Numbered from the stretch's first letter, positions 264 through 24,393 are shown. The stretch is 59,827 nt of DNA from Clostridium sp. 28_12 (GCA_001916055.1 MNRR01000035.1:17302-77128), one strand, 5' to 3'. The notes: generated by a model from the sequence alone, not told the origin. Translations and numbers: made by a program.

Positions 264-398
264 GCACCGAAAAAAAGCGGAATAATCCGTGCAGTTTTGC
301 ACGGAGAAAAAGCGAGATAATCTGTGCAATTTTGCACCGAAAAAAAGCGAGATAATCTGTGCAATTTTGCACCGAAAAAAAGCGATCTCAAATGTGCA
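264..398 (+). repeat. tandem array of 4 units (period 35 bp) of the TTGCAC..GAAAAAAAGCG..GTGCAA intergenic repeat family
   Basis: Units start at about 264, 299, 334 and 369 (gcaccgaaaaaaagcgg/agataatc(c/t)gtgca). The array ends exactly at the glyQS stop codon (399-401). Confidence 0.9.
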
Positions 399-1781
399 TT
401 AAAATTCGATTTTTTCTCTTATCCAATTTTCAAGCTCGTCTATATTGATTCTAACTTGTTCCATTGTATCTCTGTCTCTAATTGTTACTGCATTATCTTC
501 TAATGTATCAAAATCTACTGTTACGCAATATGGTGTTCCAATTTCATCTTCTCTTCTATAACGTTTTCCTATTGAACCTGTTTCGTCATATTCACACATA
601 AATTTCTTTGATAATTTTGTGTATACTTCTTCTGCTTTTTCTGATAATTTTTTAGATAGTGGAAGTACTGCTACTTTGTATGGTGCTAATGCTGGATGTA
701 AATGTAATACCGTTCTTGTATCTCCCTCTGCAATTTCTTCTTCATCATAAGCATTACATAAAAATGCTAATGCAACTCTATCTGCTCCTAATGATGGTTC
801 TATACAATATGGAACATATCTTTCATTTGTTTCTGGATCTAAATATGTAAAATCTTCTTTTGACATGTTCATATGATTTGTTAAATCATAATCTGTTCTA
901 TCTGCAATTCCCCATAATTCACCCCATCCAAATGGAAAGGCATATTCGATATCTGTTGTTGCTTTGCTATAAAATACTAATTCTTCTGGGCTGTGGTCTC
1001 TTAAACGAATATCTTCTTTTTTCATTCCTAGTCCTAATAACCAATCTTCACAGAATTTTTTCCAGTATTCATGCCATTCTAAGTCTGTCCCTGGTTTGCA
1101 GAAAAATTCAAGTTCCATTTGTTCAAATTCTCTTGTTCTAAATGTGAAGTTTCCTGGTGTTATTTCGTTTCTAAATGCTTTTCCTACTTGTGCAATTCCC
1201 ATTGGTAGTTTTTTTCTTGTTGTCCTCATTACATTTTTGAAGTTTACAAAAATTCCTTGTGCAGTTTCTGGTCTTAAATAAATTTCTGCTTTTGCATCTT
1301 CTGTTACACCTTGGAATGTTTTGAACATTAAATTGAATTTACGAATTGACGTGAAATTGTGTTTTCCACATGTTGGACATGGAATATTGTTGTCATCTAG
1401 AAATTTTATCATTTCTTCATCTGACATTCCATCTGCTATCATGTCTTTTCCTTGTTCATGTGCCCATTCTTCTATTAATTTATCTGCTCTATGCCTTGTT
1501 TTACATTCTTTACAATCTATTAATGGATCTGAGAATCCACCAACATGTCCTGATGCAACCCAAGTTTGTGGATTCATTAAGATTGCTGCATCTAGTCCAA
1601 CATTATATTTACTTTCTTGAATAAATTTTTTTCTCCATAACTTTTTTACATTGTTTTTTAATTCTACTCCTAGTGGTCCATAATCCCATGTATTTGCTAA
1701 ACCTCCATAGATTTCTGAACCAGGATAAATATATCCCCTTGCTTTGCATAGATTAACTATTGTTTCCATTGACTTTACCAT
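399..1781 (-). CDS. glyQS: glycine--tRNA ligase (single-chain GlyQS type)
   Basis: 460-aa [47 protein letters not shown]..., a class II GlyRS signature. AGGAGG RBS; T-box leader upstream. Confidence 0.95.
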
Positions 1782-1811
1782 TTGAAATCCTCCTTCTAAT
1801 GCGCTAGAAAA

Positions 1812-2040
1812 TCAAAAAACTTCCATTCCTAGCAATAAAAAATATATTGCTAGGGACGAAAGTTCATATTCCGCGGTTCCACCCTATTTCTTAAAAACTT
1901 TTATTACTAGTTTTTAAGCACCTTAATTTTTTTTACTCCAAAGCTCCCCTTATGCTTATCATTACTAGTATTCCACCATCACTAGCTCTCTATTCATGAA
2001 TCTACATAATTTTTCTTTTTCTCCGTAACTTTTTTTAATT
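1812..2040 (-). promoter_or_regulatory. T-box riboswitch leader with intrinsic terminator, controlling glyQS
   Basis: The minus strand carries the conserved T-box sequence AGGGTGGAACCGCGG (1871-1885). It is followed by a terminator stem (cctagcaat/attgctagg, extended by aactt/aagtt) and a T-run at 1814-1819. AGAGA-type stem I elements lie upstream. Confidence 0.8.
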
Positions 2041-2046
2041 GTTCAT

Positions 2047-2075
2047 ATTATATTCCTTTATTTTTCGGTTGTCAA
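2047..2075 (-). promoter_or_regulatory. sigma-A type promoter for the T-box/glyQS transcript
   Basis: Minus strand reads TTGACA (2075-2070), a 17-nt spacer, then TATAAT (2052-2047). Both hexamers match consensus exactly. Confidence 0.7.
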
Positions 2076-2207
2076 TAAAATTTATGCAAAAAGCTGGAAA
2101 TTTATCAAAATATATGTTATAATATCATTTGTAATTTTTACTGCCTTTGGTAAAACAAAGGCATTGCAACTCTTTAACTTTTTCAATAAAATGCAGGAGG
2201 TATTGCA

Positions 2208-2543
2208 ATGAAAGGAAAAGATATTATTAAACTGGAGTATGTAGAAAAAGGCGTCGTCTATCAAGGCGAAATTGACAAAAGTAATTTTGTTAATCAGATG
2301 GAACACATGGTAAAATGGTATTCGGACTGCAATGAAAATGCATCCAGGCTCTGCACCCTGCTTCCGTCAATCGAATATATTCGGATAAACCAGGATATCA
2401 TCGACACCCAAACTAACCCGTTCATTGAGTATCACACAATCGGAGATGATACTCCAAAATGTTTGAAATTCAAACACCGTTATACAATCATCTGGAGTTT
2501 CTTTGTACATCAGTGTGAAGAAGCAAAGCAGAACTCAAAGTAA
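2208..2543 (+). CDS. hypothetical protein (111 aa) in a locally higher-GC segment
   Basis: ATG preceded by GGAGG. One of the few plus-strand genes. GC is visibly higher (about 40%) than the flanks. No motif recognised. Confidence 0.55.
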   Translation: MKGKDIIKLEYVEKGVVYQGEIDKSNFVNQMEHMVKWYSDCNENASRLCTLLPSIEYIRINQDIIDTQTNPFIEYHTIGDDTPKCLKFKHRYTIIWSFFVHQCEEAKQNSK

Positions 2544-2562
2544 TATCGAATTTCCGCCCAAA

Positions 2563-2592
2563 AACGGATGGTGTCTATTGGCACCATCCGTT
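2563..2592. terminator. GC-rich hairpin terminator between the convergent 2208 ORF and rqcH
   Basis: aacggatggtg / caccatccgtt 11-bp stem. On the minus strand it is followed by TTTTT. The right arm overlaps the rqcH stop codon. Confidence 0.6.
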
Positions 2593-23098: not shown

Positions 23099-23153
23099 TT
23101 TTTATTTCCTCCTTATTTTCCGCATTTATATGCTTTATATGCTATCTTTATTA

Positions 23154-23182
23154 ATTTTACCTCTTTTTTTTATTAAAATCAA
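23154..23182 (-). promoter_or_regulatory. candidate sigma-A promoter of the Tad-like operon with a T8/A8 tract in the spacer
   Basis: Minus strand: TTGATT (23182-23177), a 17-nt spacer containing A8 (23164-23171), then TAAAAT (23159-23154). It lies about 55 nt upstream of ATG 23098. Confidence 0.4.
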
Positions 23183-23193
23183 CAATATGTGAA

Positions 23194-23237
23194 TTTTGTA
23201 ATATAAACTTAATATTTTTGTAATATTTTTGTAATAT
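23194..23237. repeat. three helically phased copies of TTTTGTAATAT upstream of the operon promoter (candidate operator sites)
   Basis: Copies at 23194-23204, 23216-23226 and 23227-23237. The spacings of 22 and 11 bp are integral helical turns. Confidence 0.6.
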
Positions 23238-23336
23238 TGCACACGTGAGATCGCTTTTTTTCCGTGCAAAATTGCACACGCGAGATCGCTTTTTTTCCGT
23301 GCAATGCACACGTGAGATCGCTTTTTTTCCGTGCAA
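23237..23336 (-). repeat. 3 tandem units of the intergenic repeat family
   Basis: ttgcacacg(t/c)gagatcgctttttttccgtgcaa occurs three times. The array ends 4 nt from the HAD hydrolase stop codon. Confidence 0.9.
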
Positions 23337-23339
23337 AAT

Positions 23340-24206
23340 TTAAATTAAATTATCTAGTGCATATGCAACACCATCTTCTATATTTGAATATGTTATTTTA
23401 TCTGCAATTTCTTTTACATATGGTGTACTTTGCCCCATAGCAATTCCTAGTTTTGCTTTTTCAATCATCATTTTATCATTCAAATTATCACCAATTGTAA
23501 CAATCTGTTCTTCAGCTATTTGCATCTTATTTTTTAATACTTGTAGTGCATTCCATTTATCGACATTTTTTGCAGAAATTTCCGTATAAAAATATTCTAT
23601 CGGAACATCTTCTGTTCCTTGTTTTATCATCTTTCTAGACATATGTGACACTTCTAGCACTTCAATATCATTTATTTCTTTTAATTTCCTCATTATAGAA
23701 TTAAATATAGATTTACTACTATCACATACTGTTATTTTTAATACTTTTTCATCTCTTTCTTGTATATAATGATAAATATCACTTACTATATTAATATGAG
23801 TTTTATCTTTCTCTTCCTTATTTAAATTTTCTTTATTGTAATATAACACATTGGCTTGTAAACTTTTAGCCAAAATTTCCTTTTCTGTATAAATATTATA
23901 ATAAATGCTATTTTGTTCGCAAATTTTTATAATATCTAAAGTTTTTTGCTTTTTTAAAGTATTTTCGTATATTATTTGATCATTTGCTATATCATATACA
24001 ATAGCTCCATTTCCTGAAATAAAATATTTATTGCTATTTATTTCTTTTGCAATTGTTTTTATCGAATCAATTGGCCTTCCTGATGCAATAATTACTTCTA
24101 TCCCTTTTAGTTGTGCTCTTTCTATCGCTTCCTTTGTTTTCTGTGTTACCACTCCATATTGATTTAGCATTGTACCATCTAAATCAATTGCTACTAATTT
24201 ATTCAT
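23340..24206 (-). CDS. Cof-type HAD-IIB family hydrolase
   Basis: MNKLVAIDLDGTMLN...IIASGRP...GDNLNDKMMIEKAKLGIAMG are the HAD motifs I-IV. Start trimmed to ATG 24206, because the ORF-track N-terminal 40 aa translate the repeat array. Confidence 0.85.
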   Translation of the reverse strand: MNKLVAIDLDGTMLNQYGVVTQKTKEAIERAQLKGIEVIIASGRPIDSIKTIAKEINSNKYFISGNGAIVYDIANDQIIYENTLKKQKTLDIIKICEQNSIYYNIYTEKEILAKSLQANVLYYNKENLNKEEKDKTHINIVSDIYHYIQERDEKVLKITVCDSSKSIFNSIMRKLKEINDIEVLEVSHMSRKMIKQGTEDVPIEYFYTEISAKNVDKWNALQVLKNKMQIAEEQIVTIGDNLNDKMMIEKAKLGIAMGQSTPYVKEIADKITYSNIEDGVAYALDNLI

Positions 24207-24223
24207 TTTTCTTTTTTCCTTTC

Positions 24224-24393
24224 TTGCACACGTGAGATCGCTTTTTTTCCGTGCAAAACTGCACACGTGAGATCGCTTTTTTTTCGTGCAAAACTGCACA
24301 CGTGAGATCGCTTTTTTTCGGTGCAATGCACACGTGAGATCGCTTTTTTTCCGTGCAAAATTGCACAGAAAAAAAGCGGAATAAAATGTGCAA
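24224..24393. repeat. 4 tandem units plus 1 inverted unit of the intergenic repeat family
   Basis: Units start at about 24224, 24259, 24294 and 24327 in the T-rich orientation, with an inverted unit at 24361-24393. The head-to-head junction at 24341-24378 forms an 11+6-bp palindrome. Confidence 0.9.

Follow-up and report, generated by a model that had tools for sequence, protein, structure and literature searches.

A stretch of 59,827 nucleotides of Clostridium sp. 28_12 (GCA_001916055.1, MNRR01000035.1:17302-77128; the window, at its full length) carries five intergenic arrays of a short repeat that begins with TTGCAC and ends with GTGCAA. The question raised by this locus is what kind of element these repeats are and how they came to lie between the genes. 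We consider it likely that they form a lineage-specific family resembling repetitive extragenic palindromic (REP) sequences, and that their partner is a single-copy, vertically inherited Y1 HUH transposase of the REP-associated tyrosine transposase (RAYT) type, encoded on the same chromosome. REP-RAYT systems are defined by a single-copy Y1 transposase, inverted copies of a dispersed short repeat that flank its gene, vertical inheritance, and repeats that are specific to each lineage (PMC2817692, PMC3116915, PMC5581495). All four of these defining features were seen here, and the repeats were therefore filed as a REP-like family with a RAYT partner.

Structure of the repeat unit

The 18-mer TTGCACSGAAAAAAAGCG, with up to three mismatches allowed, matched the window 18 times against 0.05 matches expected from 100 dinucleotide-preserving shuffles, none of which reached 18. 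Sixteen of the 18 matches make up the five intergenic arrays, between positions 262 and 24393; the other two, with three mismatches each, are located at 51884-51918. Tandem Repeats Finder reported periods of 35 and 32 bp at 89-93% identity. Together with the pattern scan, this bears out the preliminary description of the window, made from the sequence before the present analysis, which had counted five arrays with 16 full units and one partial unit in about 24 kb. The sequence itself likewise agrees with the unit pattern given there, with its three internal variants, with the occurrence of GATC and CACGTG, and with units lying in either orientation.

The unit is 33 bp long and reads TTGCAC-SG-A7-GCG-N9-GTGCAA (S is C or G). 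Its left arm, SG-A7-GCG, is invariant, whereas the right half is variable and falls into at least six classes. Neighbouring units in the window arrays are 0-2 nt apart, with junctions that read GTGCAA-NN-TTGCAC; the earlier statement that the arrays lack spacers and are not CRISPR holds. In a profile of 247 distinct units, positions 2-6 (TGCAC) are complementary to positions 28-32 (GTGCA) in at least 90%. The terminal inverted repeat, first put at 6-9 bp in general, is shorter than that: in most units it comprises 5-6 bp (TGCAC/GTGCA) around a 21-nt loop, and it reaches 8 bp in the GAATAATCC class only. This class stands out alone among single units in its folding (z = -3.7 to -4.4); the commonest unit class folds at -5.6 kcal/mol (z = -0.55). 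Inverted doublets form a stem of 17-18 bp and fold strongly (z = -7.4). A promoter inside the unit was considered and rejected, as TTGCAC and a GATAAT-like hexamer are separated by just 13 nt.

A RAYT-like gene flanked by inverted arrays

The RAYT-like gene is not in the window. At locus L190, an open reading frame (ORF) of 272 amino acids (aa; L190:6767-7585) matches the Pfam family PF01797 (Y1_Tnp, IS200-like) with 39.8 bits, above the cut-off of 23. The sole NCBIfam match of the protein is NF047646, REP-associated tyrosine transposase (E = 7.5e-16, profile positions 8-145 of 146), at a score of 58.3 bits, below the curated cut-off of 80. All 46 aligned homologues retain the HUH histidines H74 and H76 and the Y133-x-H-x-N-P motif without change. 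For the AlphaFold model of the transposase (pLDDT 81), the best fold match in the PDB was 4er8_A, the E. coli RAYT in complex with a REP hairpin (E = 1.9e-6, target TM 0.70), which ranked ahead of the IS608, ISDra2 and IS200 transposases. Judging by these sequence matches and the modelled fold, the product is predicted to be a RAYT-like Y1 HUH tyrosine transposase. The C-terminal ~120 residues, which are helical, gave no significant Pfam match; the protein is 258-272 aa long in the loci of the window family.

The gene is flanked by inverted arrays in the layout '<<< promoter gene >>', with three to four units upstream, two downstream, and the conserved arms gene-proximal. This inverted flanking was found in every locus examined (L190, L144, L216 and L239-L244), with 19-25 units in the 20.8 kb around the gene. 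By tblastn, the RAYT-like gene was found at one syntenic site only, SipL-YunB-RAYT. The RAYT locus occupies 238.7-259.5 kb of contig ERZ27311791:k141_161639, and the same contig at 79.8-101.8 kb is 99.5% identical to positions 8168-23304 of the window, the Tad-pilus region. The chromosome of the window therefore encodes the RAYT some 140-160 kb away.

Diverged RAYT lineages and their own repeats

At least 576 homologues of 257-273 aa were found, none of them named by any source. Many lie on contigs of ~1 kb, as would be expected if assemblies broke at the repeats on either side. Homologues at 58-65% identity mostly keep the neighbourhood SpoVG...SipL-YunB-RAYT-NuoE-like hydrogenase (L237 is the exception), which points to vertical inheritance. 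The window unit is absent from the loci of these 58-65% homologues, and in total four RAYT lineages carry four different locally abundant repeat families. L230 and L234 carry GAGCAAAACAGAACCGGTCCCAAATGYGCAGT (22 units in 20.8 kb, 32-bp period), which forms tandem arrays reaching from stop codon to ribosome-binding site (RBS) as well as inverted arrays on both sides of the RAYT gene. L237 carries inverted copies of GCATTTGGGGACGGGATTGAAATGCCGG on both sides of the gene, and L232, L233 and L238 carry a GGACCGGGTACA-type palindrome. Inverted flanking by the lineage's own family is thus found in two of the diverged lineages, L230/L234 and L237.

The closest other RAYT lineage, P0123/L236 at 74% identity, is chimera-like and was excluded as evidence. 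Its upstream region and 5' end (L236:1-1360) are identical to the window-family gene and contain TTGCAC arrays, whereas the 3' part of the gene and the repeats that follow it come from another family; from its sequence it appears to be either a recombinant or a low-coverage assembly chimera. Giant ORFs with Laminin_G_3 and DUF285 domains, from 1,200 to over 8,000 aa in length, lie in L230, L234 and L239-L244 (near 17300-20789), a few kilobases downstream of the RAYT locus.

Distribution and context of the family

A metagenome scan with TTGCACSGAAAAAAAGCG-N9-11-GTGCA returned at least 118 human-gut loci. The window and the listed loci hold 399 units in 800 kb, a density that is biased and counts as a local rather than a genome-wide figure, as the loci were chosen by the repeat pattern itself. 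A REP family is expected to exceed 100 copies per genome. Removal of orthologous duplicates among the matches listed left 73 non-redundant arrays, most of which are small: 17 contain one unit, 43 two, 10 three, 2 four and 1 five. Units in these arrays are spaced 35 bp apart in 46 cases and 32 bp apart in 22. Among 73 adjacent pairs, 64 are head-to-tail, nine are '-+' and none is '+-', and in the redundant set the two inverted junctions number 16 and 0, respectively. The conserved arms face each other at '-+' junctions; this switch, which has the polarity of the RAYT flanks, is the only one that occurs inside arrays.

Arrays occur after terminators, before promoters, in 5' untranslated regions (UTRs) and between convergent genes, and L190 has an array in nearly every intergenic region (11 arrays in 15 kb). 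According to simple, crude ORF calls, on which all orientation and distance statistics rest, 39 arrays lie between co-directional genes; in 13 of them the distance to the preceding stop codon is at most 3 nt, and in 11 the array stops no more than 20 nt short of the next ATG, often right beside a GGAGG. Of the units in arrays between co-directional genes, 52 place the A-run in the mRNA and 22 have the opposite orientation.

The preliminary description recognised no named family in these repeats, and none has emerged. Rfam contained no matching family at gathering thresholds (E values up to 10 gave noise-level microRNA hairpin matches), and BLAST searches of plasmids and phages returned no match to the repeats; in IMG/VR, one contig carries one unit. 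A scan of a genome collection with the 17-mer TGCACSGAAAAAAAGCG was too loose, and the matches listed were mostly chance occurrences in unrelated phyla; among them, the true family was found in L012, a Hadza Clostridia metagenome-assembled genome (MAG), alone. One match of that scan, L063:1560-1900 from a Lachnospiraceae MAG, is an unrelated GC-rich 87-bp tandem repeat with at least four copies, each starting CGCTTTTTTTCCGTGCAGGCATCGCAC, that has the 17-mer in common. The searched literature on REP and RAYT in Clostridia or Firmicutes and on CAG-356 contained no description of the family and no abundant REP family of Firmicutes. Group 1 is the sole RAYT group reported also in Clostridia, with modestly abundant flanking 16-mers (~12 per replicon) and some behaviour like that of insertion sequences (IS), such as duplicates and occurrence on plasmids (PMC5581495). 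With such RAYTs known in Clostridia and no REP family of Firmicutes in the searched literature, we therefore rate the present system as a variant of a known one: a previously undescribed version, Gram-positive and arrayed in tandem, of systems described mainly in Proteobacteria. It departs from the Group 1 description in its 19-25 units per 20.8 kb and in the single syntenic site of its gene.

Variation between strains

Its sequence places the source close to 'Clostridium sp. CAG:356', as a Clostridia species that is uncultured and very prevalent in the human gut. The glycyl-tRNA synthetase (GlyRS) of the window is 99% identical to that of 'Clostridium sp. CAG:356', and the exact protein sequence of its Tad-type ATPase is indexed in 509 blocks of the sequence collection. 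The list of GlyRS homologues was saturated by strain variants of at least 97% identity and held no distant relatives for an empty-site comparison.

The conservation of copy number and position had been suggested as a test, which a functional role would fail if they varied. In 16 strain loci the test works in the opposite sense, as positions are conserved and copy number is not: it varies strongly although the flanking proteins are identical, which is normal behaviour for REP and for variable-number tandem repeat (VNTR) loci. Five of six contigs with identical GlyRS span the array at glyQS; two of the five have four units, as in the window, and three have three, while the sixth contig ends inside the array. 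A hybrid unit is present in the three-unit allele, as would be expected from unequal recombination or slippage. The array upstream of the HAD-family gene has two to five units across strains, two to four of them in the orientation of its main block in the window (array 5a, below), and its opposite unit (5b) is degenerate in other strains. Downstream of the same gene there are one, two, three or at least five units, and the L109 scaffold breaks into Ns inside this array. After spoIVB, two units are found in 9 of 10 strains; the array is absent in L109, where the downstream DNA differs.

Two loci appear rearranged. In L109 (18690-21900), the 3' end of spoIVB and the array give way to other DNA, possibly an integrated element, with several small ORFs and a gene for an HTH_3 repressor-like protein. 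L181 (1-2430), which is 98.4% identical to window positions 11315-12914, joins the spoIVB gene and array of the window directly to the array downstream of the RAYT gene, with the break inside a unit; this is a repeat-mediated rearrangement or an assembly chimera.

A proposed mechanism and the evidence against it

We hypothesize that the RAYT would recognise single-stranded unit DNA, most plausibly the hairpin of an inverted doublet or the small terminal stem, and would nick and rejoin it, seeding new copies. Arrays would then grow and shrink through unequal recombination or replication slippage. Selection would tolerate them only in the short permissible gap that separates a stop codon from the RBS or promoter behind it and, inside operons, would prefer an A-run over a U-run in the mRNA. 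A small number of copies may have taken on the role of terminators, candidates being the hairpin with U8 after spoIVB and a palindrome at 51.9 kb. In short, we infer that the transposase spreads the units, that recombination lengthens the arrays, and that selection acts on their position and orientation.

Several observations weigh against a REP-like family served by a RAYT. In the 247 distinct units, positions 7-9 do not pair with positions 25-27 (8-24% Watson-Crick) and do not co-vary with them, so that the hairpin is not extended inwards. The classical REP tag is absent, with GTAG or its complement in 2 and CGTC or its complement in 0 of the 247. Direct (head-to-tail) doublets, multimers and a three-unit array fold no better than shuffled sequence, and most units are poor hairpins. 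The arrays run head-to-tail, unlike the inverted bacterial interspersed mosaic elements (BIMEs) and REP doublets forming hairpins (REPINs). On the protein side, the NF047646 score remains below its curated cut-off, and a sequence search of the PDB with the RAYT-like protein gave no match. The strain comparison revealed no de novo insertion, that is, no site empty in one strain and filled in another, and all differences were in copy number at occupied sites. The selection of loci by the repeat pattern and the crude ORF calls count on the same side.

Alternative explanations

A bolder reading keeps the transposase and changes its manner of working. This would be the first abundant REP-RAYT of Firmicutes, in which a transposase with an extra C-terminal domain adds units singly beside an existing unit end, in fixed orientation, so that arrays grow outward from the '-+' junction; the host would use the arrays as intercistronic spacers in register with stop codons and RBSs, and a whole prevalent clade of gut Clostridia would have such private repeats. 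We put this forward tentatively, as a possibility that has the odds clearly against it.

A second explanation dispenses with the transposase. The repeats could be passive minisatellites comparable to the mycobacterial interspersed repetitive units (MIRUs) of the VNTR type, spread by slippage, unequal crossing-over and gene conversion, with the Y1 transposase a bystander in a repeat-rich region. The strain differences, all of them copy-number changes at fixed sites with hybrid units and no empty site found, are as this explanation predicts. Head-to-tail intercistronic arrays in operons that touch or overlap stop codons, RBSs and start signals and vary in copy number between strains at fixed loci also resemble MIRUs. 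MIRUs differ in being 46-100 bp long, in lacking terminal inverted repeats and in having no sequence relationship to the units described here, and we know of no transposase associated with them. Slippage, moreover, offers no way for almost the same unit to reach dozens of unlinked positions between genes, and the non-redundant arrays number 73. Many arrays mix classes in a recurrent order: the ATCTCAnGT class is followed by GAATAAAAT at seven separate loci and the reverse occurs at none, so simple local duplication is no explanation. Inverted arrays, made of a repeat sequence particular to the lineage, enclose the transposase gene in three independent lineages. We therefore regard passive minisatellites as unlikely.

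Further removed from transposition is the proposal that the repeats are functional cis-acting RNA or DNA signals under selection rather than selfish elements: intercistronic messenger stabilisers or processing sites, terminators, or arrays that bind a regulator or nucleoid protein. Their orientation bias relative to transcription (52 versus 22 units) and the tight placement of arrays against RBSs speak for it, as do the spoIVB array, a hairpin with U8 that has a consensus promoter right behind it, the operator-like GTGCAA-NN-TTGCAC junctions, and the phasing of the A7 tracts at about three helical turns. A tuned signal is hard to reconcile with one to at least five units at one site among strains with identical neighbouring proteins. 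Arrays are also found in every kind of intergenic context, none is terminator-like in the scan, those that put the A-run into the mRNA lack structure (z = -0.6), and Rfam gave no match. Related species, finally, swap the whole sequence for a different family at the same kind of site. As a general account of the repeats, cis-acting signals thus seem very unlikely; secondary co-option of some copies may instead belong to the REP-like reading.

Degenerate CRISPR arrays, or miniature inverted-repeat transposable elements (MITEs) moved by a DDE transposase, would share the short terminal inverted repeats and a length (32-35 bp) within the range of CRISPR repeats, and can be dismissed with near certainty given the 0-2 nt without spacers between units, the many small arrays instead of one or few, the lack of cas genes in the Pfam context of the loci, the lack of a consistent target-site duplication at single-unit insertions, and a unit of 33 bp, far below MITE size (50-500 bp).

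Comparison with known systems

The preliminary description likened the repeats to REP sequences and BIMEs. The first comparison stands, with a RAYT-type gene flanked by inverted arrays; the second does not extend to the alternation of BIMEs, as the arrays are head-to-tail tandems. The system shares with the gammaproteobacterial REP/REPIN-RAYT systems (E. coli TnpA-REP, 4ER8, and the Pseudomonas REPINs) short extragenic repeats of 20-40 bp with complementary ends at high local density. Also common to both are a single-copy Y1 HUH transposase with HUH and Tyr motifs, inverted flanking repeats and conserved synteny, a repeat sequence for each transposase lineage, fast copy-number change between strains, and inverted doublets that form long hairpins.

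The differences are equally clear. The host is a Gram-positive, spore-forming gut Clostridia lineage with 28% GC, and the units lack the terminal GTAG or CGTC tag of classical REP sequences (Di Nocera 2013, PMC3733652). Their stem is weak (5-6 bp), they contain an invariant internal A7 tract, and they repeat head-to-tail at a 35-/32-bp period. The transposase is longer (258-272 aa) and has a helical C-terminal extension of ~120 aa. BIMEs have alternating orientation and defined linkers, whereas 64 of the 73 adjacent pairs here are head-to-tail; in REPINs the inverted doublet predominates, whereas just nine of the 73 pairs are inverted '-+' junctions.

The IS200/IS605 elements (IS608, ISDra2) have the same Y1 HUH fold and element ends inverted around the gene. 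Unlike in these elements, the gene described here is not multicopy, has no tnpB, and matches the RAYT model only in NCBIfam, and the 'ends' are multiplied and dispersed without the gene. The Neisseria dRS3 repeats of neisserial intergenic mosaic elements (NIMEs) and the pneumococcal BOX elements are likewise short repeats in mosaic intergenic arrays; dRS3 has inverted termini of 6 bp, and boxB consists of modular sub-units in tandem. They differ in sequence, host and unit structure, and dRS3 units flank longer RS units and act as sites of phage integration; to our knowledge, neither dRS3 nor BOX has a RAYT partner.

REP-RAYT is the best-studied case of a domesticated transposase that maintains a non-coding repeat population, and what is known of it is almost all proteobacterial. 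With a dense, strain-variable system in an uncultured and very prevalent gut lineage, Gram-positive spore-formers join the hosts of this phenomenon. Sister lineages with private repeats beside a syntenic RAYT are natural replicates for the co-evolution of RAYT and REP, and the atypical anatomy of the units (weak hairpin, A7 tract, tandem arrangement) means that the system tests what a RAYT needs to recognise. On the practical side, the arrays would serve as ready VNTR markers for strain tracking of the species. They also break or mis-join metagenome assemblies, as in the Ns of L109, the junction of L181 and the RAYT genes on 1-kb contigs, and mislead ORF callers into false N-terminal extensions.

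The individual arrays of the window

The window has a GC content of ~28%, and nearly all of its genes lie on the minus strand. Its arrays are all intergenic or overlap just the last codons of a gene. Array 1 (262-399, plus strand) consists of four head-to-tail units at a 35-bp period, of classes GAATAATCC, AGATAATCT, AGATAATCT and ATCTCAAAT. It is located directly downstream of glyQS (399-1781, minus strand), and in the mRNA sense its T-run is transcribed. Array 2 (6459-6523, minus strand) has two units at a 32-bp period, followed by the partial unit TTGCAT (6526-6531), between a terminator-like hairpin (6537-6560) and the AGGAGG RBS of the next gene (start near 6447).

Array 3 (11279-11346, plus strand) contains a unit of the GAATAATCC class and then one of the ATCTCAGGT class. 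The second unit encodes the last three sense codons of spoIVB (Leu-His-Thr) and its TGA stop (11335-11337); the 3' end of the gene reads ...GAA TTG CAC ACC TGA, in which the preceding Glu codon is non-repeat. Read as mRNA, the GAATAATCC-class unit gives a stem of 8 bp and then U8; the RNA fold of the whole array in the transcript sense has z = -3.6, and behind the array there is a promoter that matches the consensus at 12 of 12 positions (11261-11233, minus strand). A look-up of the SpoIVB protein returned no record, probably because a different start was called. Array 4 (23237-23336, minus strand), with three units of the ATCTCRCGT class at periods of 35 and 32 bp, follows the HAD-family (Hydrolase_3) gene; its RNA fold is not better than that of shuffled sequence (z = -0.6). 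The arrays had been described as abutting or overlapping the stop codons of glyQS, spoIVB and the HAD gene, and so they do: the last base of array 1 overlaps the TAA of glyQS (399-401) by 1 base, the spoIVB stop lies inside a unit, and array 4 starts 3 nt past the HAD stop.

Array 5a (24224-24358, minus strand) has four units and ends 17 nt before the ATG of the HAD gene. Since this leaves no space for a promoter between array and RBS, the geometry suggests that the array lies in the 5' UTR of the HAD gene, abuts its RBS and is transcribed. A hand-picked HAD promoter, TTGCTT-17-TACAAT, fails the criteria of the promoter scan and is conjectural. Array 5b (24361-24393, plus strand) is a single unit of the GAATAAAAT class in the opposite orientation. 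At the junction of 5a and 5b the conserved arms face each other in a perfect 17-bp stem (24341-24378), a REPIN-like inverted doublet that folds at -21.6 kcal/mol as single-stranded DNA (z = -7.4).

A diverged inverted doublet, or long palindrome, occupies 51869-51933, with the arms TAGAAC...CGTGTTTTTTCTGTGCA and TGCACCGAAAAAACACG...GTTCTA, which account for the two weak matches at 51884-51918. It lies between convergent genes (51339-51806, plus strand; 51931-52968, minus strand) and folds at -29 kcal/mol with z ~ -8 on both strands; it is probably a bidirectional terminator and a distant or diverged relative of the family. A terminator scan scored no array as terminator-like, and the arrays adjoin ordinary terminators (6537-6560) and promoters (11261-11233) without substituting for them.

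Two ORFs of the window, at 5881-6531 and 23340-24326, run through arrays and acquire false Lys/Arg-rich N-terminal extensions, because the common unit is stop-free in all frames on the A-run strand. SpoIVB of L104 is lengthened to 381 aa, seemingly by the same read-through.

The repeat-free stretch and other loci of the window

The absence of repeats from the region between 25 and 51 kb, which had been remarked on, stands: TTGCACSGAAAAAAAGCG has no match with up to three mismatches between 24378 and 51884. The region has a GC content of 22-27%, compared with 28-31% elsewhere. The capsule/exopolysaccharide (EPS) genes at its start (25028-30200; CpsB, a tyrosine-kinase-like ParA/AAA_31 protein, Wzz and a sortase) show ~85% identity in L102 and L110, which are 98-99% identical to the window outside the capsule locus; this surface-polysaccharide locus is hypervariable and probably exchanged. 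Given the lower GC content and the ~85% identity at its start, the whole 25-51 kb region would be an often-exchanged island whose residence is too short to gather vertically inherited repeats.

The only Rfam matches at gathering level in the window are a tmRNA (RF00023, 177 bits; 50871-51222, minus strand) and one tRNA (5099-5170, minus strand). Positions 12530-23098 (minus strand) hold an operon-like cluster of ~10 kb that encodes a 641-aa ATPase, a 689-aa membrane protein, two ParA/CpaE-like proteins, a 445-aa protein, and six small pilin or Flp-like proteins starting MENAxKALxIAAxVL. Almost none of the proteins of the cluster has a precomputed Pfam match, and the cluster looks like a divergent Tad or type IV-like pilus locus.

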